NCBI GenBank assembly: GCA_030622515.1
Contig: JAUXGB010000013.1
Coordinates: 1 to 18,050, forward strand
Source of the DNA: Candidatus Altiarchaeota archaeon
GTDB lineage: Archaea > SpSt-1190 > DYHY01
Reading direction: 5' to 3'
Length of the DNA: 18,050 nt
This document shows, one piece after another, positions 1 through 16,005 of the stretch (position 1 is its first letter; every line of letters starts with the position of its first letter). The notes beneath the pieces were generated by a model, which searched no databases, was not told the origin of the DNA, and saw only the letters and a list, made by a program, of their open reading frames with translations. Both the position numbers and the translations under genes were made by a program.

Positions 1-1203
1 GCCAGCGATGTCCCTGCCTTCCTTGAGCACACAAGAAATGTCATTTTCCTTGAGGACGACGAACTTGCAGTTGTGAATTCCAGCCTGAAAATATTCGACA
101 CCCTCACCATGAAAGAGCTTGAGAAAAAGCCGGAAAAAATAGAGTGGGAAATCGGGCAGGCCCAAAAAGGAGACTTCGAACACTACATGATGAAGGAAAT
201 CTCCGAGCAGACCGACACCCTTAAGCGGGCAATCAGCCAGCCGGACAAGGTGATTATGGACGTCGCCAAAAAAATCAACGACGCCTACGGTGTATTCTTT
301 GTTGCCTGCGGCTCCTCCTACCACGCCGCCCTGACAGCATCCTACCTCTTCTCGAAGATAACAAAGAAGCACATAAATGTTGTCGTCGGCAGCGAGTTCC
401 CCAATTACGAGCACTTCCTCACTGACAAGACCCTTATGGTAACAATCTCCCAGTCAGGCGAAACAGCCGACGTGCTGGCTGCGGTCAAGGCCGCGAAGAA
501 GAAAGGGGCGGAGGTCCTCTCCATCGTCAACGTCGTCGGCTCCTCTCTCATGCGCTACTCCGACTACACCCTCCCTATGAACGCGGGCCCGGAGATTTGC
601 GTCCTCTCAACAAAGTCCTACACCTCCCAGCTCGCCATCCTCACCCTTCTCGCCTACGCCTGCATTGGAAAGCTGAAAGAAGGAAAAGAAATGCTGCGAA
701 ACCTTACGGAGGATGTTGAAAAGCTAACATCGCCAAAAACCCAGGTGAAGATAGTCAAGCTGGCCTCAAAGCTTCACGAGACAAACGACATATTCACAAT
801 CGGCAGGGGCCTAAACTACGGAACAGCCCTTGAGGCCGCATTGAAAATCAAGGAGGTGTCCTACATCCACGCGGAAGGCTTTCCCGGTGGCGAACTCAAG
901 CACGGCACAATCGCCCTGATTGAGGAAGGCACCCCCGCAATTGTCTTCGTTTCAGATGATGATACAAAAAAAGAAATCCTCTCAAATGCGATGGAAATCA
1001 AGTCCCGTGGCGGATACATTGTTGGCGTCTCCCCCGAGCCGAACGAAATCTTCGACTTCCACATAAAGGTTCCAAACGCAGGCGACGCATCCCCGATAAT
1101 TAACATCATCCCGATTCAGGTCCTAGCCTACTACCTTGCCGTCTTCCGCGACTGCGACCCTGACAAGCCGCGCAATCTGGCAAAGTCGGTGACTGTCAAA
1201 TAG
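1..1203 (+). CDS. glmS: Glutamine--fructose-6-phosphate aminotransferase (isomerising), 5'-truncated at window edge
   Basis: Frame 1 is open from nt 1 to the TAG at 1201-1203. The first residues, ASDVPAFLEHTRNVIFLEDDELAVV, match the end of the glutaminase domain. They are followed by the isomerase-domain start KGDFEHYMMKEISEQ. SIS motifs VACGSSYHA and ISQSGETADVLAA are present, and the C-terminus is the canonical RNLAKSVTVK. Confidence 0.9.
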   Translation, partial: ASDVPAFLEHTRNVIFLEDDELAVVNSSLKIFDTLTMKELEKKPEKIEWEIGQAQKGDFEHYMMKEISEQTDTLKRAISQPDKVIMDVAKKINDAYGVFFVACGSSYHAALTASYLFSKITKKHINVVVGSEFPNYEHFLTDKTLMVTISQSGETADVLAAVKAAKKKGAEVLSIVNVVGSSLMRYSDYTLPMNAGPEICVLSTKSYTSQLAILTLLAYACIGKLKEGKEMLRNLTEDVEKLTSPKTQVKIVKLASKLHETNDIFTIGRGLNYGTALEAALKIKEVSYIHAEGFPGGELKHGTIALIEEGTPAIVFVSDDDTKKEILSNAMEIKSRGGYIVGVSPEPNEIFDFHIKVPNAGDASPIINIIPIQVLAYYLAVFRDCDPDKPRNLAKSVTVK

Positions 1204-1618
1204 GTTCCAATTCAATCAAAGTCTCGTCAGCCGTCGGATAAATCTTTTCAATCCAGCACCGGTAGCCTTTCTTCGACAGCCTCTCGGCAACCGCGACCGA
1301 GGTGTAAAGCTTGCCTCTTGCAACAGCCTCAATCAGCCTCGGCTTAAGCCTAAGCTTCCTGACAATTTCCTTCCTGTCGCCTGCCGACCCTGCCACCACG
1401 CCAAACACAAGCAGGCCATCGACGTCGACAACTTGGTAAGGCTTCCTAATGTTCTTCGCCGTCCTAAGGAACCGCTTCCTCAGCTGGACCGCATCCTTGA
1501 TGTAGGAAGGGCAGTAGTGCAGGCTCATCCCGAGATGCTTCTCCCCCCAGACCAGCAGCTTCAGCGCAACATCCTCGCTCCCCCTGACTGCAGGGGAAAA
1601 CCTGTGCTTTGTTTTCAT
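1196..1618 (-). CDS. Probable C-terminal continuation of the same radical SAM gene (140 aa), in the same frame 1 codon after the TGA
   Basis: The ORF is in phase with 1622..2257: the minus-strand codons read K-TGA-K-ATG. The combined length of about 353 aa fits the COG2108 family. Its stop at 1196-1198 overlaps the glmS stop region. Confidence 0.5.
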   Translation of the reverse strand: MKTKHRFSPAVRGSEDVALKLLVWGEKHLGMSLHYCPSYIKDAVQLRKRFLRTAKNIRKPYQVVDVDGLLVFGVVAGSAGDRKEIVRKLRLKPRLIEAVARGKLYTSVAVAERLSKKGYRCWIEKIYPTADETLIELEPI

Positions 1619-1621
1619 TTT

Positions 1622-2257
1622 TCACTTGAGAAAAGCAGTCATATTCCCTTCAGAAAACTCAAGCTCATTTATGTTGCAAAAGGTTGCGCCGGCCGCTTCA
1701 AGCCCCTTGAGGAACTTCTTGATAGTGTTCAGCTTCCCCGGCATGGCTGGTATCTCCCCGCCAACCTCCCACCTAAATTTGGTTGCCATCTTGACAGCCT
1801 TGAGGTTCCGGTGGAACCGGATTTCATCCACGCCAGCTTCGTAAAGCCTCTTCAGCTTGCCTCTGGTGGCAGCCGTCCCGGAGGTGTAAAGATGAATGTG
1901 GAACTTTTTCCCAAATTTCCTCTTCAGCGCCCTGACAAACCTGACCGTCCTCCCGACCTTAAGCAGGGGGTCGCCCCCAGTTATCCCCGCCCCTGTCGCC
2001 TTCATCCGCTTCGCTTCCAGCATCAGGTCGTCAACGTGAACAACCCTCCTCTCATTCGCAAAAGCCCTGTCCTTCCCCCTTCGGGAAAATCCAACAGGAC
2101 AATAGTAGCAGTTATCCTTGCAGACGCCAGTGACAAAAAGCACCAGCTTCTCCCCTCTGAGGCACTTCCTGCACCCCTCAGGCAGCCGGCCTGTGAAAAC
2201 CGAACCGCCAGTTGTCCTCTTTATCTTGCCCATAACAAAAAATGGAGGCGGAGACAT
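1622..2257 (-). CDS. Radical SAM domain protein (COG2108-like, PFL-activase related), N-terminal 211 aa ending at an in-frame TGA
   Basis: It carries a CxxxCxxC cluster (GVCKDNCYYCPVG) after a PEGCRKC motif. GITGGDPLL and HIHLYTSG are typical of radical SAM cores. The ATG at 2257 is preceded by GGTGGAGG. The frame ends at the TGA at 1622-1624. Confidence 0.8.
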   Translation of the reverse strand: MSPPPFFVMGKIKRTTGGSVFTGRLPEGCRKCLRGEKLVLFVTGVCKDNCYYCPVGFSRRGKDRAFANERRVVHVDDLMLEAKRMKATGAGITGGDPLLKVGRTVRFVRALKRKFGKKFHIHLYTSGTAATRGKLKRLYEAGVDEIRFHRNLKAVKMATKFRWEVGGEIPAMPGKLNTIKKFLKGLEAAGATFCNINELEFSEGNMTAFLK

Positions 2258-2284
2258 TTTAGCCTTTTGCCTCCACCCTCAATT

Positions 2285-2602
2285 CTACCTTTTCAGCTGT
2301 ATATCTATTGAAGATATGTTCAGCTTGTCGCCAGACTCGCTCTGCATGTGTTCTGTCCCTATGGATATATTGTCCACTTTCAGCTCGCTCATAAACCTGT
2401 GACGCACTATCTCAGCGACGTCAACAGCCCTCGAAATTGCGCGTCCCCTAGCCTTTATGTGTACCTCATTAGCCCCGTTGTGGAACTGTGTGACAACTGC
2501 CAATACGTAGTTCATCGGAGGCTTACCCCCCACAAACACCACGTTGTCCGCTGCTTTCTTGTGCTCTGTTCTTTTGTGCTCTGTTCTCTTGTTTTCTGTC
2601 AT
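2285..2602 (-). CDS. albA: Alba DNA/RNA-binding chromatin protein (105 aa; an alternative upstream start at 2668 gives 127 aa)
   Basis: [50 protein letters not shown] is the Alba/Sso10b signature. The ATG at 2600-2602 is preceded by AAGGTGA 6 nt upstream. The extra 22 codons upstream ([22 protein letters not shown]) have no Alba counterpart. Confidence 0.85.
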
Positions 2603-4504: not shown

Positions 4505-4711
4505 TTAGCTCTGCTCTTCTTTATCGTCATCAATAACTTCAATTGCCTTTTCCGGGCAGCCGTTCTCGCACGCCTTGCACCCAATGCAGTCATCCGGCCT
4601 TGCGACAATGGGACCCTTCTCATCGTCCCAGTCAAAAACATTCATCGGGCATACTGCAACGCAGTTTTTCGCTTTCTTGCACCTGTCAAAGTTAACTACT
4701 GGCTTTGGCAT
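4505..4711 (-). CDS. 2x[4Fe-4S] ferredoxin (68 aa)
   Basis: It has two CxxCxxCxxxCP motifs (CKKAKNCVAVCP and CIGCKACENGCP) and an acidic C-terminus. Confidence 0.85.
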   Translation of the reverse strand: MPKPVVNFDRCKKAKNCVAVCPMNVFDWDDEKGPIVARPDDCIGCKACENGCPEKAIEVIDDDKEEQS

Positions 4712-4747: not shown

Positions 4748-6754
4748 TCAACCCTCATTCGGAAAGTCGCTGCACTCTATCGTGCTGGCGTCATCAATCT
4801 CTTCCCGATACTGGAAGGCAAAAGTCATGGTGTAAAGGGTTTCGTCCAGCCCCTCGTCAGTAATAATCTCCCTAAGGCAGAACAGGTCTGTGACGTCAAC
4901 AGTCACATTGTAGTCAATTGAGCCTGTGTAAAGCTGGCCGTCAACCTCGTGCTTGCAGCACTCGCCCTTCCAAGGACTCCGCTCACAATCCACCTTAAAT
5001 AGCTCTATTGGGATGAGGGCATCCGGGTCCTCCACAACCGTCCCAGAGGGATAGGTTGTCGCAGTGTCTCTTGAGACATCCTCAGTTTCCTTGCAGATGT
5101 CGACTATATCATCAAAGTTGCTCCACAGCTTTTCAATATCAGCACAGTCATCCGCCTTCCAGTTCGAAGACGAGGTGTTGACCGTGCCAAACGTCGGCTG
5201 GTTAGTTTTCAAGGCAAGCGACAGGGGTGATGTCCATGTAGCTATGCTGCCGTTGGCCTCAGCGTTTATGCCAGCGTCGATATCAATGCCAATGTTTTTC
5301 ACCCTGACAACTGTCGGGTGCTCCAGCTCGTTCTTGTTGAAAAGGTCAGCATAAGCCTCAGTCTTGTTCCCGAAGTTCTGGACCAGCCCCTCTTGGAAGA
5401 TAGTTTCTATCGAGCTTACCTGCTGCACATCGCATGTTGTGCACTTGCCCTCTTCCGGCTCCTTGCACTCTGGGGGATAGTAGGCAGGGTCGCCAATCCT
5501 CTCGCAGATTCCGTTTCCGCATGTAAAGCAGTCGCGTGAGCATGTTCTTGTGTTCTCCCCCTTATCTGCCTCGCAGTAAAGGTTTCCGCAGTGGTCGCCA
5601 CAGTCCTGGCTGTTTCCGCAGGTCTCGATAGCAGTGCACTGCACTACATGGTCGCTGTCGCCTTCCCTGCACCAGAACTCGATTGAGCAGACCCCGTCCT
5701 CTGTCCTAGACGGAAGGCCCGGTGTTGACGAACCACCCTCGCAGGCAGAGTTGCTCCACTGGTCAGTTATCCCACAGTCTTCCGGGGCAACATCCGAATA
5801 GCAGGTTTCCCCGCTCTCGCAGTCCTGAAGGCTGTAGCCTGCCCTCACGGCGGCCAGCTGGTTGCTCTCAAGTCCCAAGCTGCTCAGGTCTTTGTAGCTT
5901 TTCCTAACGGCGCAGTCCCTTGGGCACCTGTTTATGTAGTTCCTGACCGTGAACATTAGCACCTCATGCTGCTGGCAAATCCCATCTCCACAGGTGGCGC
6001 CTGCATCTTCAGAATTGAGCTGGGTGCAGTCATTGCCAACCTCAAAGACATTGCAAACCCCGTCGTTTGTGTAGAAACAGTCGCCAACAGCATAGCCTCC
6101 ATAGCCGGGCCCCATGCTTGTTGGCTTTCCATGATAAGCATTTGAGTAAGCCTCGCTTTCTCCAGCCTTCCAGTTGCAGGTCCCGTCACCGACCCATCCG
6201 CAGTCTTCAGGACAGTTCCATATTGTTTCCTTTCCCTTCCGTGGGGTCCCCTTGATATCACCCTCCCTGTCCTTGTCGTAAAGGTTGTCGCATGTCCCGT
6301 CACCGCAGCAGCCATACTGGCTTGGGTCTGTGCACTTTGCGACAGGCTCCCCACAGTCGATTGGGCAGTTCTCAACTGTCTCGTTAACAGTCGGGGGATA
6401 AAGCTGGCCGCCAGACATCCCTTCCTCGCACCATTGCCACATAAGGATTTCGTTCAGGATAGGAACCCCTCCATAATCAGTTTGCAACGAAGCATTTACC
6501 GAAGGTATCCCACCGTGCGCTGAAGAATCATCAACAGCAAACGTGAGTATAAAGTCAACAGCAGTCTCCATAAAGAGTCGGGCCTGCTCATTAGCATGAA
6601 CTGCCTCGATGTAAAGTGTCTCGGCAGCCTGTAAATCCATATACCTGTCTATCTGGGAAAGGTAGCCGGCAGCTATCGTAAGCCCCACGCCCATGGCAAG
6701 GCCGCCAAGCATGCAGAGCAGGTCGGTAGCAAAAGCTTTCCGTCCTTTACTCAC
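4748..6754 (-). CDS. Large cysteine-repeat extracellular protein (668 aa) with an N-terminal class III signal-like anchor. It is the last gene of the array.
   Basis: A GTG start at 6752-6754 is preceded by GGAGGTGA. The N-terminus reads MSKG|RKAFATDLLCMLGGLAMGVGLTIAAG. There are about 43 Cys, in repeated NCPxDCG (x3) and CG[DN]GxC (x4) motifs. Confidence 0.8.
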   Translation of the reverse strand: MSKGRKAFATDLLCMLGGLAMGVGLTIAAGYLSQIDRYMDLQAAETLYIEAVHANEQARLFMETAVDFILTFAVDDSSAHGGIPSVNASLQTDYGGVPILNEILMWQWCEEGMSGGQLYPPTVNETVENCPIDCGEPVAKCTDPSQYGCCGDGTCDNLYDKDREGDIKGTPRKGKETIWNCPEDCGWVGDGTCNWKAGESEAYSNAYHGKPTSMGPGYGGYAVGDCFYTNDGVCNVFEVGNDCTQLNSEDAGATCGDGICQQHEVLMFTVRNYINRCPRDCAVRKSYKDLSSLGLESNQLAAVRAGYSLQDCESGETCYSDVAPEDCGITDQWSNSACEGGSSTPGLPSRTEDGVCSIEFWCREGDSDHVVQCTAIETCGNSQDCGDHCGNLYCEADKGENTRTCSRDCFTCGNGICERIGDPAYYPPECKEPEEGKCTTCDVQQVSSIETIFQEGLVQNFGNKTEAYADLFNKNELEHPTVVRVKNIGIDIDAGINAEANGSIATWTSPLSLALKTNQPTFGTVNTSSSNWKADDCADIEKLWSNFDDIVDICKETEDVSRDTATTYPSGTVVEDPDALIPIELFKVDCERSPWKGECCKHEVDGQLYTGSIDYNVTVDVTDLFCLREIITDEGLDETLYTMTFAFQYREEIDDASTIECSDFPNEG

Positions 6755-7313
6755 TCCTCGTCACCTCCGTTGCCTCTTCGATTCTCTTCCGCAGCTTCCA
6801 GTCAGTGTCTACCTTGGTTATCTTCTCCCTCGTGAGTCTGGGGTTTCCCTCTTCATCAAGCGGAAGCGGGATTAGGTAGTGCCTTGACAAGGCCTCTGTC
6901 TTAGTCTTATCAAAGCCTGCGCAGTCGCCTGCAGTGAAAAGGGCTTCCCCGCTGTTATGTTTCATCAGGCTGAAGTAGTAACAGCCCCTTAAATAGTCTA
7001 GAGTAAACCGCGACCACTTCCCTTCCACAAGCCCCTCGACACTATAGTCCTCACCACAAACCTTTGGTGTGGTAGTGTCAGCTATTATGGCGCTAATCAT
7101 CAGGTTGTAAAGCCGCGGGTTTCCCTCGCATGCCGTGTCATGTGCGGTTGAGTAGGAAAGCGACTGCATGTAAGGCAGTCTTACATCGGCAAGCATCTTC
7201 TCAGTCATATGGAAGGTTGTTGTCATGTCGAAAAGCAGGGCAAAGTAGGCAATAGTTACAAGTGAGAACATAAGTGTTGCTTCCATCAGGCAGTGGGTTA
7301 GTGCTCCTCTCAT
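6747..7313 (-). CDS. Pilin-like hypothetical protein (188 aa)
   Basis: The N-terminus is MRG|ALTHCLMEATLMFSLVTIAYFALLF. The ATG overlaps the upstream stop (ATGA), and the 3' end overlaps the next gene by 8 nt. Confidence 0.7.
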   Translation of the reverse strand: MRGALTHCLMEATLMFSLVTIAYFALLFDMTTTFHMTEKMLADVRLPYMQSLSYSTAHDTACEGNPRLYNLMISAIIADTTTPKVCGEDYSVEGLVEGKWSRFTLDYLRGCYYFSLMKHNSGEALFTAGDCAGFDKTKTEALSRHYLIPLPLDEEGNPRLTREKITKVDTDWKLRKRIEEATEVTRSE

Positions 7314-8284
7314 TCCATATCCTCCAAGAATTGCCTTCCCTGCCTTTTCACCTTGTCGATGATGTCGTCATTTAGGTCAGGGTTTGCGCACTCGCTGTGA
7401 GCCTTCCATACCCAAATCTTTAGCGAGCCTATATGCGTTGCGTCATCATAAACAATCCCCACGGGAAGCATGTAGTCTGTCGGCTTCGAATCCTTCACAT
7501 ATTCCGACAGCTGTTTCAATGTCCTAAGCCTTGCCTTCCATTTCATGTATGTCATTCCAGCCTTAGCTATTACAGCCCCAACGACAGCTGCCACTATCAT
7601 AGATGTGCCGGCACTAGGTGCGGCAAGCGCGGCCCCGACAGCAACACCAGTGCCTGCAGCCACAAGAACTGATGTCATTACATCGTCCTCGGTATAGACA
7701 TCTATAACATTGTTGAAGTGGTTCTTCATCGTCTGCTTCGTGCCTTCAAAGACCTGAGACTGCATGTCTGACCAGACGCTTCGTCCAAAGCTCCACTTGT
7801 AGGGAACAGTTATCTTTTCCTTGTGTGGGCAGAAAATGTCAACCCCGCCAAGGCCCATGCATCCTGCATGTGCATAATAGAGAGGGTTAAGAACCTCTTT
7901 CGTCCGTTCATAGTCAATCACCTCAGCCCTCCAGTGGTAGCAGAAAAGGTGGCTTTCAGGCGACATCTCCCCCATGACAGCTATGTTTATGTCGAAAGCG
8001 TCGGCAAGGGGCGATTCCCACTGGCCATACTTGTCGTCAAAGCTTTTTATTTTATCAATATCAAGCAGGTTCTTGTGGGCTGTCAGGTCCGGCTTGGTAA
8101 AAACATGGGACAGCGTCTCCTGCGAAGATACAAGCCTGTGCGCAACCATCACCGCATACTTGTATGGCATGTAAGTGTCAACCTCGCCCTGAAACTTCAT
8201 GTTAGCACCTGCGATAATGACAAAGACCAGGATTATCATAAGAAGGGAGACAAACGCTGATGAAAACCACGATAGTCCTTTCAT
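7310..8284 (-). CDS. Pilin-like hypothetical protein (324 aa) with a second Gly/Ala-rich TM helix
   Basis: The N-terminus is MKG|LSWFSSAFVSLLMIILVFVIIAGA. A second hydrophobic segment, VLVAAGTGVAVGAALAAPSAGTSMIVAAVVGAVIAKAG, lies near residues 197-234. The start directly follows the upstream TAA. Confidence 0.7.
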   Translation of the reverse strand: MKGLSWFSSAFVSLLMIILVFVIIAGANMKFQGEVDTYMPYKYAVMVAHRLVSSQETLSHVFTKPDLTAHKNLLDIDKIKSFDDKYGQWESPLADAFDINIAVMGEMSPESHLFCYHWRAEVIDYERTKEVLNPLYYAHAGCMGLGGVDIFCPHKEKITVPYKWSFGRSVWSDMQSQVFEGTKQTMKNHFNNVIDVYTEDDVMTSVLVAAGTGVAVGAALAAPSAGTSMIVAAVVGAVIAKAGMTYMKWKARLRTLKQLSEYVKDSKPTDYMLPVGIVYDDATHIGSLKIWVWKAHSECANPDLNDDIIDKVKRQGRQFLEDME

Positions 8285-8830
8285 TTAGCTCACCCACGTG
8301 CAGTTTGACTCGTCGAAATCGTTCGCCCCCAGTTCGAAGTCAAGGTTGTCCTCCCCAGTCTCAAGATTAGTGTGCTTGGTAAATACAACTATGAACCCCT
8401 TTCCCTTTGGCAGCCGGATTGTTTTTTTCGGAACATTGGTTATCGGGATAAAGCTCAGCCCCGACTCCTTCCTGTCAGGGCTCCAGACAGCAACAAAGCC
8501 GCCGGGTCCCCCTGTGCAGACATGCTGGAGTTCCCCAAAGTCACTCCAACCCTCTACGCCGCATTTGGCCGTGTCAACAGTCACAAGATAGCTGTAGGTT
8601 CCGGGGAAGTTAACGCAGTAGACCCCCATGTCTGGTGAGGTTGCAACAGCTGTCATAGCTCCTGCAAGGGTGTTTGCGACCATCCTGGCATTCTGAAGCG
8701 CCCAAAGCTGCCCCTGCATCTGGAGAAGGTAGCCCACAAGAATCACCCCTGCAACCATCATCAGGGCTAAGGGAATAAGCTGGAGCATTCCGTAAACCTC
8801 TTCTTCCTCGTCTGCAAGCTGTCCTCTCAT
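8285..8830 (-). CDS. Pilin-like hypothetical protein (181 aa)
   Basis: MRG|QLADEEEEVYG is followed by the helix MLQLIPLALMMVAGVILVGYLL. The gene lies 8 nt after the stop of the 753-aa gene. Confidence 0.65.
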   Translation of the reverse strand: MRGQLADEEEEVYGMLQLIPLALMMVAGVILVGYLLQMQGQLWALQNARMVANTLAGAMTAVATSPDMGVYCVNFPGTYSYLVTVDTAKCGVEGWSDFGELQHVCTGGPGGFVAVWSPDRKESGLSFIPITNVPKKTIRLPKGKGFIVVFTKHTNLETGEDNLDFELGANDFDESNCTWVS

Positions 8831-8838
8831 CTTTCCAC

Positions 8839-11100
8839 CTAGAACGGTTTGACCGCTCCCAGCACCTCAACCCTGTCTCCCTTGTGCTCTGCCGTGATTG
8901 CTGCAGAAACTGCAGGGTTGCACGAAATCGGCACGCCGCAATCAACTGTGTAGCAGGCTGCGCACATGGCAGGAATATCACATGTTGAAATGGCGTTCTT
9001 GAGGCAAAACACCATCCCCGTGTTGCCAAGGAGTCCGCAGTTGCCAATCGCAGCGGACAAAGTGCCAATGCCTCGCGAAAATCCCTTGCTGATAAAGCCG
9101 CTTGAAAAAGTGGCGGCCTTGATTCCCCAGTGGTCATAAACCTGACCATAGTCGAGAGGCTGCACCGGCATGCCCCGCAGCTGGATAATCCTGTTCCCCA
9201 GCTTTATCCCGTCCTCGTTAAGGTTCAACGCCTCGACAATGCAGCCCTCGCTTAAGGTGAGGGCCTTGGTATCATAATCGCAGTTGAGCCTCACAGCGCA
9301 CTCTGCCAGCTCAACCTTGTTGGTTACAGTTTCAGGGCTAACATCATCCATCTGGAAGTCTGGCGCAGGGAAAGTCTCCGTAACCGTGACGGTTTTCACG
9401 CCACAGTCAGACGACCTCAGGGCTGCAAGCACTTTCCCTTGGGTTTCAAGCAAATCGTCATTTATCTCCTGAAGCTCCGCGGCGTGCTGCTCAATAACAG
9501 CGGCCTGCCCGACAACATTAAAGTACCAGTCGCAGATGTAGTCCTTGTCATAACCCGCCTCCAGCCTGCATATCTCATCCATCTCGCTGGCAGGCTCTGC
9601 AAGGCCGGCAGCGACAAATCTCCATGGGTCGTGCGACAGGCCGGCCTCCCCAAGGACGCCGGTCCAGCTGTAAAGAAAGTCTGCCTTAAGCTGCTCAATT
9701 TTCTCGCCATCTTCTGGATGGTCTCTTGCCATTTCGTCCAGCTTGTAGGAAACAACTATCTCAACATTGTCCCAAAGCCTTTCAGCATGTTCATCCCTGA
9801 CCACAATAAACTCACTGTCCCCTTCCTGAAGCACCTGCACTATGTAGGTCGGGGTTGTTGCAGTTTTCTCAGTGAAGTGGTTTGCAGCATAGCCGCCATC
9901 TTCCAGGAGGACAAACAGCTTGTGCATATCACCGACAAACTTTTGGTGAACCTGCCTTCCCTGTGCCGCCCTAATCTGCGGCTGGTCAGACTCGACTATC
10001 GACTTTATCTGGCTTTCCGCGCTTGTCCCGTCCTTAACAACAATAACCCGGTCTATCCCGACAGGGACATTTGTCGCATTGCTGGCAATAATCTTCTCAA
10101 AATCCTCCTGCATCTCGCTTGTGGCGTCCCCAAGTTCGTATATCAGGTTGGGATAAGCTGACCCAATGAGCATTGCAATGTAACCGCTGCCGGCAGAAAC
10201 CGCAAGGTAGCCATTAAGATACTTCTTCCCAATCCCAAGCTTAAACGACTGTCTCAAAATCTTAAGCCTGCTTACCTTTTCCGTCTTTGAAAGCTGGCCA
10301 ATCTTCCACGCCTCGGCAGTGTACCAGCTGGTTGTCACGTCCTGAGTCCCTTTGATTATGTTTTTTGAAGTTACCTGTGAGGTTTCCACGACAATATCGT
10401 CGCTTGCGAGAAGAACCTCGTCAAGGTATTGGGCATTGCCTGTCTTCTGCCACTTCCCTGCGGCAAAGTCGAGGTATTTTGCCAGGTCATCCCCCTGAAT
10501 GAAAACCTTGACCCCGTCCCCTTTGTCAACCCATGCCCCTGTCTTAAGGGCCTGCTTGCTCATCCTGAACTGGCCTCCCCTGATTAGCAGCTTCTTCGTC
10601 TTTGCAAACCTGAGAAGCCCTTCCTTCATTCTTACGAATTTCCCACCAACCTTTGAAAAGACAGTCTTAAGCGCCTGCATACTCCACTTTGCAACCCCCA
10701 CACCCTTTATTGCCTGCCCCGTAGCCTTGAGGGAAGTGTAAGCGCCTTTGAAACCCTTGCCTATGCTTTTCCCTGCCTTAACCATCTCAGTCCCAAGCGA
10801 AGCTGCAGCGGCAACACCTAGAGCTGTCCTAAGTGCAGCCTTGCCTGAAATTGTTTTGCAGTCATCGCACTGGAATTGAATGTATGGCGGCGGAGCCTCA
10901 AAGCTCTTGAAGTCGCCCTCGCCCCCGCGGCACACCTCCTGGATGTATCCCTTCATCTCAGTCGCTTTTGAAGGAATCGGGTAGTTGCCAAACATAACAC
11001 CCTCAAGGGCGAGCATCATCGGCTTTGCTCCGAAAGCGATAAGGCTTCCGAAAAGGATTACAACCAGCAGCCCGCCTGTTATCCCGCGTCTATATCCCAT
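8839..11100 (-). CDS. Giant pilin-like protein (753 aa)
   Basis: The N-terminus is MGYRRG|ITGGLLVVILFGSLIAFGA. A Lys/Gly-rich region follows. A C-terminal Cys cluster reads NCGLLGNTGMVFCLKNAISTCDIPAMCAACYTVDCGVPISCNP. No in-frame stops occur over 2.26 kb. Confidence 0.8.
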   Translation of the reverse strand: MGYRRGITGGLLVVILFGSLIAFGAKPMMLALEGVMFGNYPIPSKATEMKGYIQEVCRGGEGDFKSFEAPPPYIQFQCDDCKTISGKAALRTALGVAAAASLGTEMVKAGKSIGKGFKGAYTSLKATGQAIKGVGVAKWSMQALKTVFSKVGGKFVRMKEGLLRFAKTKKLLIRGGQFRMSKQALKTGAWVDKGDGVKVFIQGDDLAKYLDFAAGKWQKTGNAQYLDEVLLASDDIVVETSQVTSKNIIKGTQDVTTSWYTAEAWKIGQLSKTEKVSRLKILRQSFKLGIGKKYLNGYLAVSAGSGYIAMLIGSAYPNLIYELGDATSEMQEDFEKIIASNATNVPVGIDRVIVVKDGTSAESQIKSIVESDQPQIRAAQGRQVHQKFVGDMHKLFVLLEDGGYAANHFTEKTATTPTYIVQVLQEGDSEFIVVRDEHAERLWDNVEIVVSYKLDEMARDHPEDGEKIEQLKADFLYSWTGVLGEAGLSHDPWRFVAAGLAEPASEMDEICRLEAGYDKDYICDWYFNVVGQAAVIEQHAAELQEINDDLLETQGKVLAALRSSDCGVKTVTVTETFPAPDFQMDDVSPETVTNKVELAECAVRLNCDYDTKALTLSEGCIVEALNLNEDGIKLGNRIIQLRGMPVQPLDYGQVYDHWGIKAATFSSGFISKGFSRGIGTLSAAIGNCGLLGNTGMVFCLKNAISTCDIPAMCAACYTVDCGVPISCNPAVSAAITAEHKGDRVEVLGAVKPF

Positions 11101-11632
11101 AGGTTACCAGTACGCCCCCTTCAAATCTCATAATAACAAGCTTATGCTCACCAGGCCCAAGAGTTACGCCTGCCAATGCGCCTGCACTGCAGTGGTGGAC
11201 CTCGCCGGCATAACTGTATATTTCTTTCTTCCAAAACCAGCTGCCTTCTGTTTCGTGCCAGCTTCTGGCTATCAAGACGCCCTTGCTCCCACTATCGCAC
11301 TTGTCCTGCATGGCTTTTACACTTTTCTTAAAGGAGGGGTTGCCTTCGTCAAAACCCGGCCAAACACTAATCCCATCCTGAATCGTATTGCAGTCATATA
11401 TCAATATCATCTTGTTCCTTGGCACGGAAATAGGCACCTCTTCCAAAATCTTGCCCTCACATACATCCCTGAGCGCATTTGTTGTGTCAGCTATGCCATA
11501 AAACATTCTGGTCTCCGCGCTCGAATCAACCATTCCCCTCACAGACCAAGCCGCGAAGTAGATAGTTACTGCAGCCAAAATCATGATGAAAAGGGTAGTA
11601 TAGGCAACACCCCTCAAACTGTGCTTAGACAT
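11090..11632 (-). CDS. Pilin-like hypothetical protein (180 aa)
   Basis: The N-terminus is MSKHSLRG|VAYTTLFIMILAAVTIYFAAW. It overlaps the downstream gene by 11 nt. Confidence 0.65.
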   Translation of the reverse strand: MSKHSLRGVAYTTLFIMILAAVTIYFAAWSVRGMVDSSAETRMFYGIADTTNALRDVCEGKILEEVPISVPRNKMILIYDCNTIQDGISVWPGFDEGNPSFKKSVKAMQDKCDSGSKGVLIARSWHETEGSWFWKKEIYSYAGEVHHCSAGALAGVTLGPGEHKLVIMRFEGGVLVTYGI

Positions 11633-11640
11633 CGTGAAGA

Positions 11641-12072
11641 TTATCCGGTCAGCCCGTTCTTTATCGCCTGCTTATTCGCGTAGGTGTGGCAGGCGCTTGG
11701 GTTGTAAATTTCGTGGACCTCTGAGCGGGTAATTGAGGAGGACTCTGTAACGTAGAGGTAAACCGCGCAGTCGCAGTTAGTGAACTTTGCATAATTGTCC
11801 CACTCCTCCCGGGAAATCCAGCCAAGGGATACGGCGGACTTGGTTATGTCTTCCAGTCTCTTCTCTGTCGGGTTGTTGGTCCACTTGCTCCTGTACGAGT
11901 TAAGGCAAAAGCTTTCAATGGTGATTTGCGCAGTGCTCTCATCCGTATTTTTGATTATATCGTCAAACTCCTCAAGGTTGGCCTTCCCCATCATCTGATA
12001 CATTGCGACCCCGACTACCAAAGCCAGGAGAATTGCGACTAAAATCCAGATAGGCTGGTCTGTTCCTTTCAT
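11641..12072 (-). CDS. Pilin-like hypothetical protein (143 aa)
   Basis: The N-terminus is MKG|TDQPIWILVAILLALVVGVAMYQMM. It is preceded by a 56-nt gap containing ATATTTA (a possible internal promoter). Confidence 0.65.
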   Translation of the reverse strand: MKGTDQPIWILVAILLALVVGVAMYQMMGKANLEEFDDIIKNTDESTAQITIESFCLNSYRSKWTNNPTEKRLEDITKSAVSLGWISREEWDNYAKFTNCDCAVYLYVTESSSITRSEVHEIYNPSACHTYANKQAIKNGLTG

Positions 12073-12128: not shown

Positions 12129-12794
12129 TCAGGGAAATGTCCAGCCAACAGCCTCATTTGCGCACTGCTGCACGCTTATCCCGCAGTTATCAGCCTTGTT
12201 CTTAACCGTTTTGCAAACCATGGCGCAGTATGGCGCAAAGTCCCTCTTCATGGTGGTTGCCGAGCCGCTCTCAATCTTCTCCCTCATAATGCTTGCCGCA
12301 GACCCATAGTCAATTGTCCTCAGCTTTTCCCCGCAATCCTCCCCAGCTTCGCAGAGGATAAACTTCAACGCCTCAACACACCTGACAGCATTGTAGCATG
12401 GCGCACCTTCAGTCCTCCCGTCAGTCCCGCCACAGTGATATGTCCGCGGGTTTGCTATCAATTCCCCATTTTCATCCACTATGACCAGCCCTGAGGAGTA
12501 GAGGTGCCACGGTATCTCATAGTACTTGTTCCACTTGTTTACAAACTCGTTTTCACAGTTTGAGCACCCTTCACAATTCTCGTTCGGGCAGTTTGCAATA
12601 TGCTGCCCCCATGCAACGCACTGGATTTTCATGGCGAAGTAAGCGCCAGCATTCCCTTCCAGCTGCTGGGAGTATCCACTAGTTTCTTCCCTGACCACGT
12701 CAGCGTTGAGGTAGTTCATCATCAGGAGAACTACCACTATACCTACCATTAAGGAAATTACCAGCGCAATTGTCATGTCAAAGCCGCCTTTCAT
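12129..12794 (-). CDS. Pilin-like Cys-rich hypothetical protein (221 aa from the ATG at 12794; the ORF track's longer 242-aa form starts at 12857)
   Basis: The ATG at 12792-12794 forms an ATGA overlap with the stop of the upstream gene. The N-terminus is MKG|GFDMTIALVISLMVGIVVVLLMM, and it carries many Cys (CEGCSNCENE etc). Confidence 0.7.
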   Translation of the reverse strand: MKGGFDMTIALVISLMVGIVVVLLMMNYLNADVVREETSGYSQQLEGNAGAYFAMKIQCVAWGQHIANCPNENCEGCSNCENEFVNKWNKYYEIPWHLYSSGLVIVDENGELIANPRTYHCGGTDGRTEGAPCYNAVRCVEALKFILCEAGEDCGEKLRTIDYGSAASIMREKIESGSATTMKRDFAPYCAMVCKTVKNKADNCGISVQQCANEAVGWTFP

Positions 12795-13204
12795 TCCCCA
12801 AGATACCCCCTTAAAGGACTGTTCCAGCACCTCTCGGTCGGCGGGTCTCTGGAACACTCCTTGTATATTTCAAGAACTGCAACGCAGACATCATAGCAAA
12901 TTGACGGGCTTTTCTGCGCGTCTTCAGGCACGCACTGGCTGCTTAAGCTGAGCCGCTGGGAATATTCAGGAACCTGGGAAGGCATTGTAATGTCAATAAA
13001 GTCGCTCCTGTACCATGCGTCGCAGGCCCTGTAAATTGCCTGCACTTTCAGCCCTGTCGCAAAGGGTATGTTTGAGTCGTCAAGGCTGAATTCGCCAGAA
13101 GTCCCAAGCTTTCCAATAAGGACCGTATAGCTTACAAGGAGGAGGCCAATCCCCACCAGTACAATCAGTATCCAAGCAACAGGCATCGTCATCCCTTTCC
13201 TCAA
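12791..13204 (-). CDS. Pilin-like hypothetical protein (137 aa with the TTG start at 13204, or 133 aa from the ATG at 13192)
   Basis: With the TTG start the N-terminus is (M)RKG|MTMPVAWILIVLVGIGLLLV. GAGGAAAGGG lies immediately 5' of the internal ATG at 13192. Confidence 0.65.
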   Translation of the reverse strand: MRKGMTMPVAWILIVLVGIGLLLVSYTVLIGKLGTSGEFSLDDSNIPFATGLKVQAIYRACDAWYRSDFIDITMPSQVPEYSQRLSLSSQCVPEDAQKSPSICYDVCVAVLEIYKECSRDPPTERCWNSPLRGYLGE

Positions 13205-13722
13205 GTTACATCCCTCTCCACCCTGTCCTTCACATCCCCTATCCTTGAGTTGACGCAGTAAAGGTAGGCTGTATTGTAGCTCATGTCAACCTCGCCGCCG
13301 TCAATAATCGCCTTGTGGGTCTTTGTGCTGTACTGGAATGTGTCAGGAAACTTTGCAGGGCTTACCCTGCACCCTATCTCGTCTATAAGCAGCTTTACGC
13401 ACGCGGCCTTGCACTGGCGGCACGGCTTTCTAGGCCTTGGGGCAGTCTCATAGCAGACCTGACAAAAACCCCACCTGTCGTCTTCCAAAATATCTTGGCT
13501 AATAGCAGCCTCCCTCAGGCTTCCCGGTATTGTCGAGTCAAGGACAAGGTTGCTTGTCCAGTCCCTGCACGACCTTACCAAATCGTTTGTCGACAGGGCC
13601 ATCTTAACGTCAGTCGCCTCATTTGCCAGAGGCACATATCTTTGGAAAATACCTAAGTAGACGAGATATAGGAGTAGCAATGCAATTATTATCGCAATTA
13701 TCCACTTTATCCCAATCTCCAT
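13201..13722 (-). CDS. Pilin-like Cys-containing hypothetical protein (173 aa)
   Basis: The N-terminus is MEIG|IKWIIAIIIALLLLYLVYLGIF. It has an ATG start and Cys pairs CRQCKAAC. Confidence 0.65.
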   Translation of the reverse strand: MEIGIKWIIAIIIALLLLYLVYLGIFQRYVPLANEATDVKMALSTNDLVRSCRDWTSNLVLDSTIPGSLREAAISQDILEDDRWGFCQVCYETAPRPRKPCRQCKAACVKLLIDEIGCRVSPAKFPDTFQYSTKTHKAIIDGGEVDMSYNTAYLYCVNSRIGDVKDRVERDVT

Positions 13723-13731
13723 CGGGGTTAC

Positions 13732-14310
13732 CTAACTACATTTTATTGTGCCAATCCTTGTAGATGAGCTACAAAGGGTAGACGTCCTCAACGTGTTCTC
13801 AAGTATTGACTGCTTCTTGTTCTCGCTTACCGCAGTACACTGCTGGTCAACAAGATTTGACATTTCAATAAGGGCGTTGCACGCGTTTACGCACTGCTTG
13901 ACATAGGTGTCATCGAACTTGACAAACCCGTTGTTGCATTTTGTCGACCCCGGATTTTGGGCACATTCCCTCTGGACGTCAAGCGCTTTGTCCTTCAGGC
14001 TGTTTTTGTCGTCCCAGCAGCAACCTGTCTTGCTGCCAAAAGGCGCCATCTTGTCAGGTATCTTGAAAGTCTCGACTATCGCCTTAGCCTTGTACTTGTC
14101 AGGGCTGCCAAGCCACCGCTGGCAAGCAGCTATAGCGCTCCCAGCCTCAAGCTGCTCCTTCTGCGTATCCCCTATCTTCCACATGTCAAACAAGCCCGTC
14201 TGGACCTTGTTTACCGCCCCCATACCTACGAGCAGTATCATCACAAAGAGGATTACCGCAATAACCAGACCTATTACATTGGATTCTGCCATGGTTGAAT
14301 AGATAATCAA
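13732..14310 (-). CDS. Pilin-like Cys-rich hypothetical protein (192 aa with the TTG start at 14310; more likely 186 aa from the ATG at 14292)
   Basis: Codon 14308-14310 is TTG. The in-frame ATG at 14290-14292 gives MAESNVIGLVIAVILFVMILLVGMG. The C-terminal half has 10 Cys. Confidence 0.65.
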   Translation of the reverse strand: MIIYSTMAESNVIGLVIAVILFVMILLVGMGAVNKVQTGLFDMWKIGDTQKEQLEAGSAIAACQRWLGSPDKYKAKAIVETFKIPDKMAPFGSKTGCCWDDKNSLKDKALDVQRECAQNPGSTKCNNGFVKFDDTYVKQCVNACNALIEMSNLVDQQCTAVSENKKQSILENTLRTSTLCSSSTRIGTIKCS

Positions 14311-14329
14311 CTCTTAAAAATGCCTTTCC

Positions 14330-14488
14330 CTACCCAAAGAGGTTGAAACTGGAAACCGAGCGGCCAACCTGCCCCCATGCGTCCCCAACCATGAAGTTCA
14401 TAGCCCCGGTGAACCAGAGCGCCAGAGCAACGACAATGACTGCAAGGCCAATCGTCATTATAAGCTTGAAAATGTCTTCCCCTGCCAT
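14330..14488 (-). CDS. Small single-TM protein, 52 aa (MAGEDIFKLIMTIGLAVIVVALALWFTGAMNFMVGDAWGQVGRSVSSFNLFG). It is missing from the ORF track, which reports only the overlapping 62-aa 'MRYGRG' frame.
   Basis: My own translation of the minus strand gives an ATG at 14486-14488, 3 nt after the upstream stop, and a TAG at 14330-14332. It has a clean TM helix. The overlapping 62-aa frame is Arg/Gly/Trp-rich and looks spurious. Confidence 0.55.
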   Translation of the reverse strand: MAGEDIFKLIMTIGLAVIVVALALWFTGAMNFMVGDAWGQVGRSVSSFNLFG

Positions 14489-14491
14489 ACC

Positions 14492-15028
14492 TCAACTCCC
14501 CAGATAGTCAAACCTCCAGCTAAATACGCTTCTCTCCTCGCCAAGGTGATGCAGCCTCACAATTGCCTGACCGCTTCCATAGCCGCTGGCGTCAATCTTG
14601 ACCTTATTGCTTGATATGTCGTCCCAGTTAAATATAACTCCCCTGCTTGAGAGAAGCTCCGCGCTCCCCTCGCCAGACGGGAAGCCCTTTGTCCCTTCAG
14701 CAATCTTCTCCTCATTCAACCATACCTCGTAAGAGAGCTGGACCTTTGCCAAAGCAATTTCGTCGTCACCGCAGTTGCAAACGCTTATGAGGGTGCCGCC
14801 GAAAACAGTTCCCTCCTTTGCAACAGCCCGCCTGAACCCAAGAACCTCAAGCCTCAGGTCCTCCCCTTCAATGCCGCTGCACGCGCAGGCAAAGCTGTGA
14901 AGGGCGCGTTCCGAGTCCTTGGAAGAATCGATAACCCCCGGCAGGATAACAAAGAGGAAGACAAATATGACTAGAAAGACGGCAACAATCTCAATCACTA
15001 TCGTCATGTTAAACCCGGTCGTTCCCAT
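14492..15028 (-). CDS. Pilin-like hypothetical protein (178 aa)
   Basis: The N-terminus is MGTTG|FNMTIVIEIVAVFLVIFVFLFVIL. The ATG overlaps the upstream TGA (TGATG). Confidence 0.7.
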   Translation of the reverse strand: MGTTGFNMTIVIEIVAVFLVIFVFLFVILPGVIDSSKDSERALHSFACACSGIEGEDLRLEVLGFRRAVAKEGTVFGGTLISVCNCGDDEIALAKVQLSYEVWLNEEKIAEGTKGFPSGEGSAELLSSRGVIFNWDDISSNKVKIDASGYGSGQAIVRLHHLGEERSVFSWRFDYLGS

Positions 15029-15510
15029 CAGGATATCTCCTCAATTGTTACGCAACCGTCAGGGTAGGTCCCGCCCCCAACTGCCTCAATGCCAATCATG
15101 TAGCTTCTCCCGCTCCAGATATAATGGGTTTCGGTTGGCCCAAGCATGTAAAAGTTCAGCCCTTCCTCGTCTCCCGCAGGGCAGGTGGCGACAGCAGTAA
15201 CAATCGGGCCGCCGCCAGCCCTTATCTCCCGCCTCTCATCCTCCTCAAAGCAGTCGCAGTTGACAAGGTTCTTCAAAAAAGAGTCGAGCGAAACCCCATC
15301 GCCCTGCTTGTTAAACCTCACATAAGCAACCCCGTCCTTCAGGTAAGCGCAAAGCTTCTCCATATTGTAATCCCCTGTCGAGGTTTTTCCCCCGCTTGCA
15401 AGGGCGCTGAGAAGGGTCAGGGTGCTTCCCCCGAGAAGGGCGAAAACCAGGGCAGCAACAACTATCGCAATCCCGATGTTTATCGCATTCTTGGTTCCCT
15501 GTTCTACCAA
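15028..15510 (-). CDS. Pilin-like hypothetical protein (160 aa, TTG start)
   Basis: A TTG at 15508-15510 is immediately preceded by an in-frame TAG. The N-terminus is (M)VEQGTKNA|INIGIAIVVAALVFALLGG. Confidence 0.55.
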   Translation of the reverse strand: MVEQGTKNAINIGIAIVVAALVFALLGGSTLTLLSALASGGKTSTGDYNMEKLCAYLKDGVAYVRFNKQGDGVSLDSFLKNLVNCDCFEEDERREIRAGGGPIVTAVATCPAGDEEGLNFYMLGPTETHYIWSGRSYMIGIEAVGGGTYPDGCVTIEEIS

Positions 15511-15614
15511 CTAAGCCACGTTCCAATCTTCGAGGCACTGCCCTGTATCATCATAAAGATGACAGCGGCAGCAAGAAGTACCAGGATTATTCCCACAATG
15601 GCTTCAATGCTCAT
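15504..15614 (-). CDS. Possible tiny single-TM ORF, 36 aa (MSIEAIVGIILVLLAAAVIFMMIQGSASKIGTWLSW), not in the ORF track
   Basis: GAGGGG lies 3 nt upstream of the ATG at 15612-15614. Its TAG stop overlaps the TTG start of the next gene by 7 nt. It fills an otherwise empty 110-nt gap. Confidence 0.35.
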   Translation of the reverse strand: MSIEAIVGIILVLLAAAVIFMMIQGSASKIGTWLSW

Positions 15615-15621
15615 GTCCCCT

Positions 15622-15810
15622 CTAGACTGCCGGGCTGACTGTTCCCCCAAGTGCATCACCTACAATCTGGTCCCTTATTCCTGTAAGGGCAGAACTGACC
15701 CCCGAAGGGTCCATTATGCCTCCAAACACATCTGACGTAAAGAAAATGTAAATAACAAATAAAAATACTATCGCACCGACAACAAACACTAGACCATACT
15801 TCCCCCTCAT
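15622..15810 (-). CDS. Small single-TM protein (62 aa), MRG|KYGLVFVVGAIVFLFVIYIFF
   Basis: It has an ATG start with GGGGGA upstream. The N-terminus is pilin-like and the C-terminal half is Gly-rich. Confidence 0.55.
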   Translation of the reverse strand: MRGKYGLVFVVGAIVFLFVIYIFFTSDVFGGIMDPSGVSSALTGIRDQIVGDALGGTVSPAV

Positions 15811-15813
15811 CTT

Positions 15814-16005
15814 TCATCCCCCAATAATGTCCTTCCCCACAGCTGCCAAAGTGTCTCCTGCCCCGCCAACACCACCTCTCCCTATCAGGTCAGACCATGA
15901 GCCAAGGGAGAAAATCTGGCCGAAAGCTATGGCAACAACAACCATCCCGATAATGAAAACCATGGTCCATACCAGATTTGAATTAACAACCTTGAACGCC
16001 ATCAT
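15814..16005 (-). CDS. Small single-TM protein (63 aa)
   Basis: It has a TM helix (VWTMVFIIGMVVVAIAF) and a Gly-rich tail. Its ATG overlaps the upstream TGA (ATGA). Confidence 0.5.
   Translation of the reverse strand: MMAFKVVNSNLVWTMVFIIGMVVVAIAFGQIFSLGSWSDLIGRGGVGGAGDTLAAVGKDIIGG

Follow-up and report, generated by a model that had tools for sequence, protein, structure and literature searches.

Background

The systems closest to the gene described here are the modular pilins, whose pilin carrier has a functional module grafted on it, as in PilB and PilC of Streptococcus sanguinis and in GspK of the type II secretion system (T2SS) (Raynaud et al. 2021, PMC8179133), and the loci for archaeal type IV filaments (TFF), which hold many pilin-like proteins with class III signal peptides (SPIII proteins) together with large adhesin-like proteins, as in 'system 2' (Sivabalasarma and Albers 2026, bioRxiv 10.64898/2026.04.22.720090). 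The archaeal TFF literature also has SPIII proteins that functionalise the base machinery without long pili, and S-layer-priming roles have been noted as well. A census of archaeal TFF loci has been published (Makarova et al. 2016, PMC4858521). Here we examine a gene at 4748-6754, read on the minus strand, in an 18,050-nucleotide stretch of DNA from a Candidatus Altiarchaeota archaeon (contig JAUXGB010000013.1), the whole of which is called the window. The product of this gene, hereafter the target, is a Cys-rich protein of 668 aa, and we conclude that it is probably a modular pilin-like protein of an archaeal TFF system.

Family G and the Cys-rich insertion

The open reading frame (ORF) of the target runs from a GTG at 6754-6752 to a stop codon at 4748-4750 and its product has 43 Cys (6.4%), in agreement with the preliminary description of this DNA, which had been made without database searches and had reported a 668-aa ORF with about 43 Cys; the strings quoted there, namely ENCPIDCGEP, WNCPEDCGW, NRCPRDCAV, CGDGTCD, GDGTCN, CGDGICQ and CGNGICE, are all found in the target. 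The GTG start and a ribosome-binding site before it, described there as strong, were also found, the Shine-Dalgarno-like site lying 6 nt before the GTG. The GTG overlaps the stop codon of the preceding gene (GTGAGTAA), and because of this overlap translational coupling between the two genes is suggested. No Pfam or NCBIfam family matched the target at E ≤ 1 and no PDB sequence matched it in phmmer at E ≤ 10, and hence a curated S-layer, dockerin, EGF-like or knottin family, which had been proposed as the match that would speak against a new repeat, was not found in these searches. When close homologues were sought by a word-indexed search of 5.8 billion proteins only the target itself was returned, and no second copy was present in any collection searched.

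An exhaustive phmmer search with the target over 1.8 billion representative proteins gave 8 distant matches, which are of two kinds. Six of them (P0002, P0003, P0004, P0006, P0007 and P0009; 327-675 aa) share with the target only its N-terminal ~110 residues (aa ~5-114), the best being P0002 with an E of 6.8e-13 in the whole library, and the other two, P0005 and P0008, match aa 384-419 of the target through tandem Cys repeats. In the shared N-terminal part a basic leader precedes a hydrophobic helix, and a conserved helical segment (LQxAE...HxxEExRLF), a GG motif and WxWC are also present. With a family profile hidden Markov model (HMM) built from five members, the query being left out, positions 2-102 matched aa 6-111 of the target with 83.6 bits and positions 110-318 matched aa 434-650, and this C-terminal match scored 19.2 bits compared to a maximum of 8.9 bits in 2000 shuffles. 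Judged from these profile matches, the target is a member of a conserved, unannotated family, which we call family G. Because matches to the family HMM flank it on both sides, aa 112-433 is read as an insertion in the conserved core; the Cys region had been taken to be the ectodomain itself and it is instead a 322-aa segment inside that core. Three further searches with the N-terminal domain gave nothing: a three-sequence alignment found no relatives in genome contigs, a first metagenome scan found none either, and the N-terminal family alignment had no matches in the protein collection, for which the word index or low-complexity filtering was probably to blame.

The N-terminus of the target reads MSKGRKA|FATDLLCMLGGLAMGVGLTIAAG, with K-A|F-A followed by a hydrophobic helix, and this satisfies the class III signal pattern as a pattern match with a predicted cleavage only. 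The class-III-like N-terminal helix described earlier was borne out in this way. The corresponding N-termini of the homologues are RRG|I, RRA|V and KG|L.

The features of the target gene are the following.

4748-6754, minus strand (6754 to 4748): target gene of family G, from the ORF and its translation; the stop codon is 4748-4750.
6768-6761, minus strand: Shine-Dalgarno-like site GGAGGTGA, read from the sequence, 5' of the target GTG.
6422-6754, minus strand: N-terminal family core, aa 1-111, from the family HMM, motif and hydropathy, with the leader MSKGRKA, a hydrophobic helix at aa ~8-32, a helical stalk and GG...WxWC.
5456-6421, minus strand: Cys-rich insertion, aa 112-433, between the two family HMM matches, from the family alignment and composition.
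6353-6385, minus strand: C-terminal half of a four-Cys unit, aa 124-134, NETVENCPIDC, from the unit HMMs.
6200-6307, minus strand: split unit, aa 150-185, from half-unit HMM matches, with CGDGTC, a loop of ~19 aa and ETIWNCPEDC.
aa 189-200, minus strand: half unit, from the unit HMMs, which with aa 150-185 forms a unit-pair variant shared with P0005.
5912-5992, minus strand: split unit, aa 255-281, from half-unit HMM matches, with CGDGICQ, a loop and CPRDC.
5528-5590, minus strand: intact 21-aa unit CGNLYCEADKGENTRTCSRDC, aa 389-409, with 19.6 and 11.8 bits in the unit HMMs, which drives the matches to P0005 and P0008.
5492-5521, minus strand: N-terminal half unit, aa 412-421, CGNGICERIG, from the unit HMMs.
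4751-5455, minus strand: C-terminal family core, aa 434-668, from the family HMM and family alignment, with predicted helices and strands and 9 Cys.

The insertion starts right after the WxWC motif and is missing from all other family members found. Among its 322 residues there are 32 Cys, 41 Gly and 53 Asp plus Glu, with a net charge of -30, and the earlier picture of an acidic, Gly-rich Cys region is upheld by this composition. Its G+C content at third codon positions (GC3, 0.65) and its Cys and Gly codon usage are like those of the rest of the operon, and this speaks against an origin from foreign DNA or as a chimera. CPxDC and CG[DN]GxC occur three times each in the target, and in 20,000 shuffles of the residues at aa 109-441 neither motif was ever seen as often. 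By the unit HMMs, the CG[DN]GxC and NCPxDCG motifs are the N-terminal and C-terminal halves of one four-Cys unit of 19 or 21 aa. Thus, the Cys motifs are real modules, as had been proposed, on the evidence of the unit HMMs and the shuffle counts, and they belong to a single unit and not to two module classes. All the positions of a full unit (C1, G2, [ND]3, C6, E10/12, C15/17, D18/20 and C19/21) are present at aa 389-409. The regular spacing described earlier was not found: besides this one intact unit, the others are dispersed and their halves are parted by loops of 8-19 aa or longer, and the target does not have a head-to-tail array. The split pair at aa 149-202 matches residues 145-193 of P0005 (phmmer, iE 7.7e-4), and because it recurs there it appears to be a variant and not mere decay. 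The suggestion of N-glycosylation did not hold up either, since 6 N-x-S/T sequons were observed against 4.6 expected and 30% of the shuffles reach 6. The Cys counts are even, with 32 in the insertion and 10 in the core ectodomain, and 1 more is in the transmembrane (TM) helix. The AlphaFold2 models were of low confidence.

The four-Cys unit outside the target

The consensus of the unit is C-G-[ND]-G-x-C-[ED]-x-G-E-x4-C-P-x-D-C. Head-to-tail CGNGxCExxxGENxxxCPxDC units are carried by P0005, by P0008 and by the gene that follows the G gene in one related locus, L003, where within 8748-11755 P0003 is followed by a 327-aa repeat protein (10772-11755) that has a Sec signal, contains six to eight four-Cys units in tandem and ends in a TM helix as anchor. 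The preliminary description had proposed a search of archaeal metagenomes for the CPxDCG motif. In one metagenome scan with six exact 8-mers from P0008, 591 stretches matched, and the unit was found in the 271 of these that were confirmed by tblastn. Unit statistics were taken from the best 80 loci (L007-L086) of the 271 confirmed stretches. They hold 550 units, mostly of 19 or 21 aa, with up to 40 units in one carrier protein and with array linkers mostly of 1-10 aa, the commonest being 2-6 aa. In the sampled units C1, C6, C15, C19, Glu10 and Asp18 were invariant and Gly2 nearly so, the invariance of the four Cys and of position 18 being partly imposed because the search pattern fixed the former and limited the latter to D or N. 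A sub-type of the unit, CEPQCGE..C, has two extra Cys per 21 aa.

The contigs of the carriers range from 27 to 71% GC and lipobox-like N-termini occur in 23 of the 80 carriers. When carriers were searched for domains (four proteins at E ≤ 1 and ten at E ≤ 0.001), several of them were found also to hold a beta-helix/NosD domain, DUF2341, DUF4215, a MopE-like metal-binding motif or the sorting tail of the type IX secretion system (T9SS), and those with NosD/beta-helix, DUF2341 or a T9SS tail are non-pilus proteins. No Pfam or NCBIfam family matched the arrays of 20 or more canonical units, the unit profile had only a chance match (E 0.8) in PDB sequences, and a literature search on the motif strings gave nothing relevant. 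A search of the protein collection with a six-unit repeat array gave 7 candidates and 0 matches, and here again the word index or low-complexity filtering was probably to blame. The CysRRep repeat from a paper on horizontal gene transfer was considered and rejected, its pattern, Cx6-9Cx5-7Cx8-11Cx7-8CC, being a different one. As far as these alignments go, the unit is widespread, extracellular and uncurated and is present in both domains of life, and the insertion of the target is a degenerate version of this common unit, which is neither novel to the target nor specific to archaea. The Cys repeat had been thought to be a novel archaeal one, which does not agree with 271 confirmed metagenomic stretches, with the GC range of their contigs, or with carriers that have T9SS tails and lipobox-like N-termini.

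The TFF locus and its neighbours

The genes that place the target in a filament locus are these.

16355-18050, minus strand: platform protein (TadC/FlaJ/PilC-like, polytopic), its N-terminus cut by the contig end, from synteny with locus L089.
12129-16005, minus strand: small pilin-like proteins with one N-terminal hydrophobic helix each, including tiny ones of 52-63 aa, from hydropathy and a motif scan, with counterparts in L089.
11641-12072, minus strand: gene A, with orthologues by pairwise BLAST, as for genes B to F.
11090-11632, minus strand: gene B.
8839-11100, minus strand: gene C.
8285-8830, minus strand: gene D.
7310-8284, minus strand: gene E.
6747-7313, minus strand: gene F.

After the platform gene there are 15 gene products with a single N-terminal hydrophobic helix (a 52-aa ORF at 14330-14488 is counted). 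In the last ten consecutive products, the target included, [KR][GA] stands directly before the helix, and the other five have the helix only; the products of genes A to F each have [KR]G and a hydrophobic helix at the N-terminus. The genes A-B-C-D-E-F-G form a seven-gene block whose order is kept in the related loci L001, L003, L005 and L089, and in L004 and L006 the order is E-F-G-C. The genes that flank the block are conserved as well in L001, L003, L005 and L089; they encode Band_7 (59-65% identity), a protein of 198 aa, Alba and a radical SAM protein. The whole locus can be seen in L089, a contig of 488 kb from NCBI assembly GCA_964527545.1, where a T2SSE ATPase (PF00437) of 760 aa is followed in turn by a polytopic protein of 705 aa, four very small pilin-like ORFs, some twelve pilin-like proteins, G, a C-like protein, Band_7 and the genes past it. 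In the window, the protein of 563 aa at 16355-18046 has 49.7% identity, over 559 aa, to this 705-aa protein, which in L089 directly follows the T2SSE ATPase; the window protein is without ~145 N-terminal residues because of the contig end, and no relatives of it were found in genome contigs. By analogy with L089, the TFF ATPase should be just beyond position 18050. The organism is taken to be an archaeon because Alba is in the window and genes for EF-1alpha-type and S10 and S15 ribosomal proteins are on the syntenic contigs. From gene content and order, the locus is the distal part of an archaeal TFF locus, a run of pilin-like genes behind a platform protein, with the target as its terminal pilin-like gene, and both the pilin-like array and the position of the target as its last gene, as given in the preliminary description, were recovered, the adjoining ferredoxin gene having its own TTTATA box.

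Every member of the A-G set has a conserved N-terminal part of ~100-150 aa and a length that is very variable between genomes; for instance, D has 181 aa here and 696 aa in L005, E has 324 and 585 aa, and F has 188 and 355 aa. Since the lengths vary around a conserved N-terminal part, modular expansion is, on this comparison of predicted proteins, not confined to G. The Cys count is even (4-16) in most of the pilin-like proteins that the locus encodes, an observation suggesting that surface proteins of this organism generally contain disulfides. A different conserved Cys cluster is carried by the protein at 12129-12857 (minus strand), where it reads CPNENCEGCSNCENEF; its counterpart at 46-588 of L003 has CPDCSCDTCRDQF. 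The 52-aa ORF at 14330-14488 (minus strand), with one TM helix (MAGEDIFKLIMTIGLAVIVVALALWF...), occupies the space from one pilin-like gene to the next and has a 49-aa parallel in L089; a 62-aa ORF that overlaps it (14307-14495) is without a helix and probably spurious.

The ferredoxin gene (4505-4711, minus strand; 68 aa, 2x[4Fe-4S]) is 36 nt 3' of the target and has a small inverted repeat (GGCCA...TGGCC) as well as a TTTATA box ~30 nt before its ATG. At the matching position in L003, L005 or L089 no such gene is found, and a functional link between ferredoxin and target was rejected on account of its promoter-like box and its lack of synteny. The radical SAM gene was considered as a maturase of the target and also rejected, as it is kept beside Alba whatever the Cys content; it is parted from the target by three or four genes, some of them on the other strand. 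In the window this gene (1196-2257, minus strand) is split into ORFs 1622-2257 and 1196-1618, and its orthologues in L003 and L089 are single genes of 328-354 aa, the split being a frameshift, a pseudogene or an assembly error. The gene at 73-1203 (plus strand) is the SIS half of GlmS, cut by the contig end; GlmS in L089 has 563 aa with GATase domains. The long ORFs at 8610-9149 (minus strand), 5956-6375 (minus strand) and 1433-2311 (plus strand) overlap real genes in other frames; they are Arg/Pro/Ser-rich, have no homologues in the syntenic loci and are probably spurious. An Rfam scan of the window, L001, L003 and L005 found no RNA genes.

Interpretation and alternative explanations

Orthologues of the target in sister loci have other additions. 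P0003 has a Peptidase_C39_2 match (E 5.8e-13) and P0004 a weak match to M74/LAS-type peptidases, and in the region 10001-18646 of L005 the gene after P0004 encodes a 2177-aa protein with 106 Cys, NLPC_P60 and Amidase_3, which is followed by a 346-aa repeat protein. That orthologues have a C39-like or a weak LAS-type peptidase at other sites supports G as a carrier of interchangeable modules that would face outward. What defines a modular pilin, a conserved carrier with an added module that is also found outside pilus proteins, is seen in the target as far as its alignments reach. A probable course of events is that the N-terminus would target the protein to the TFF machinery and that, upon membrane insertion, prepilin peptidase would cleave after K-A (aa 6-7), the N-terminal helix then serving as its anchor in the membrane or the filament. 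Given its 668 aa and its bulky insertion, the target would be more likely to take a tip or a basal position than one in the filament body, as proposed for GspK and the modular pilins. All Cys of the insertion and of the core ectodomain may be paired in disulfides, which fits because the counts are even, and the conserved acidic positions Glu10, Asp18, N/D3 and E7 may bind Ca2+, as suggested by the invariance of the Glu and the Asp of the unit together with N/D3 and E7. The insertion would then be a rigid, disulfide-stapled surface that serves as an adhesive or a spacer. The function predicted from the sequence as the most likely one is adhesion or spacing, by a module at the surface or the filament tip to which disulfides, and perhaps Ca2+, would give stability.

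Several points weigh against this interpretation. The putative cleavage site is K-A, whereas [KR]-G is more usual, and curated pilin N-terminal models such as PF07790 and TIGR02537 were not matched, there being no Pfam or NCBIfam match at E ≤ 1 for the target or for the other operon proteins submitted. The T2SSF match of the platform protein is under the Pfam cut-off (E 0.038 for the whole protein and 9.5e-4 for the fragment), the ATPase and the prepilin peptidase are outside the 18-kb contig so that the system is inferred from synteny, and the insertion is known from one contig only. The disulfides, Ca2+ binding, tip location and adhesion are predictions from sequence.

It is possible, though we think it rather doubtful, that the target is never polymerised and works in the TFF system as an accessory or surface protein with a membrane anchor, be it a bindosome-like stub, the base of a pseudopilus or an assembly factor that spans the envelope, in which the insertion would be a stiff stalk that holds the C-terminal core off the membrane or through the S-layer. 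The whole A-G block is co-conserved and its members are large and variable (C has 632-761 aa), which is more like a multi-subunit complex than simple filament subunits; the lack of a match to any curated pilin model and the literature on SPIII proteins that work at the base machinery or in S-layer priming point the same way. The N-terminal signal and the evidence from the locus are, however, identical under either explanation and do not discriminate between them, and the separate Sec-type proteins of related loci, with tandem units and C-terminal anchors (such as that at L003 10772-11755), show that the repeat can be displayed without a pilin carrier.

The origin and chemistry of the insertion have also been explained otherwise. 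That it is an entirely new repeat domain, found in this archaeal protein alone, with two kinds of small, regularly spaced EGF- or knottin-like modules, would agree with the lack of Pfam, NCBIfam and PDB sequence matches and with a close-homologue search that returned only the target, but both motifs are halves of one unit, the unit is in at least 271 confirmed metagenomic stretches, which include T9SS-tailed bacterial proteins and lipobox-like ones, and in the target its spacing is irregular and the region is an insertion in a conserved family; this explanation is improbable and, on these alignments, largely refuted. We consider it very improbable that the Cys clusters ligate Zn or Fe-S instead of forming disulfides, which would make the target a redox or metal-binding surface protein tied to the ferredoxin downstream. 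The ferredoxin gene is indeed next to the target on the same strand, and extracellular disulfides are less to be expected in an anaerobe, which the organism probably is, but the TATA-like box of the ferredoxin gene and the absence of that gene from this position in three syntenic loci speak against such a tie, the unit has no CxxC or CxxCxxC and its conserved E10 and D18 are acidic and more typical of Ca2+ sites, some carriers hold extracellular domains or lipobox-like N-termini on contigs of widely varying GC, and the Cys counts are even. Finally, a single contig with no second copy in any collection would be consistent with an artefact, either an assembly chimera at the insertion or a long ORF that is no real gene, and yet the 2-kb frame is unbroken and has its Shine-Dalgarno site and start-stop overlap, both flanks of the insertion come from the same family in the correct order, its GC3 and codon choices are those of the operon, and it holds a unit-pair variant that is conserved in an unrelated protein (P0005). 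An artefact is thus hardly credible.

If the target is a modular pilin-like protein, the 'modular pilin' principle, which is a bacterial one, would extend to an uncharacterised archaeal filament locus, with an insertion in the style of GspK. The locus also yields a seven-gene set of co-conserved pilin-like families without annotation, and the four-Cys unit, which is abundant in metagenomes yet invisible to Pfam, NCBIfam and PDB sequence searches, is a target for curation and for structure work. A bolder proposal, which we regard as speculative and unlikely, is that family G is the interchangeable 'warhead carrier' of an undescribed type IV filament in a sparsely sampled clade of archaea, that this filament is a contact-dependent device by which bacterial cells would be bound and, in certain lineages, lysed, and that the unit is a new, very widespread extracellular mini-domain family without a structure or a database entry. 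Lineages would then plug into the carrier, or set beside it, a C39-like peptidase, a LAS/M74-like peptidase, the neighbouring 2177-aa NlpC/P60 and amidase protein or, as here, a Cys-repeat binding module that depends on Ca2+ and disulfides. The carrier being fused to or beside peptidases and peptidoglycan hydrolases in sister loci may give a testable, if speculative, lead on contacts between archaea and bacteria.

Comparison with known systems

Among curated repeats, the unit is most readily compared with DUF4215 (PF13948) and with TIGR02232 (myxo_disulf_rpt), which are likewise extracellular Cys repeats that start with CG[DN]G..x.GE.C and have conserved acidic residues. The DUF4215/TIGR02232 repeat differs in being longer (~45 aa) and in its Cys pattern; the Pfam model of DUF4215 did not match the target or the canonical arrays of 20 or more units, and where DUF4215 and the unit co-occur, in one protein of L031, DUF4215 matches a different segment. 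The disintegrin-like domain of ADAM/reprolysin proteins has a Ca2+-binding segment, CGNGxxExGEECD, which is of use here as a lead only. The unit starts in the same way, with C-G-N-G-x-x-E-x-G-E, and the Asn, Glu, Glu and Asp of that segment are spaced like N/D3, E7, E10 and D18 of the unit, whereas the C-terminal half of the unit is C-P-x-D-C after a 4-residue loop; the unit profile found no ADAM chain among PDB sequences.

In its general plan the locus is like archaeal TFF loci: it has one platform gene with many pilin-like genes downstream of it, its ATPase is long (760 aa in L089), and some of its members are large and exposed at the surface. Unlike the adhesin-like proteins of those loci, which are Ig-fold-rich or PilY-like, the target has Cys repeats. 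It differs from the modular pilins in being archaeal and in having no pilin signature of the IPR012902/PF07790 type, in a carrier family of ~330 aa that is uncharacterised and whose pilin fold is only putative, and in an extra module that is a degenerate Cys repeat and not a defined vWA or lectin domain. Like the modular pilins and GspK, however, the target has a class-III-like signal at its N-terminus, a carrier module and a bulky extra module with no specific tie to the biology of pili, and its gene is the last of the minor-pilin-like ones. This extra part sits within the carrier, as it does in GspK, and is not appended to it, and as among the modular pilins the orthologues of the target swap the extra module, for instance for a peptidase.

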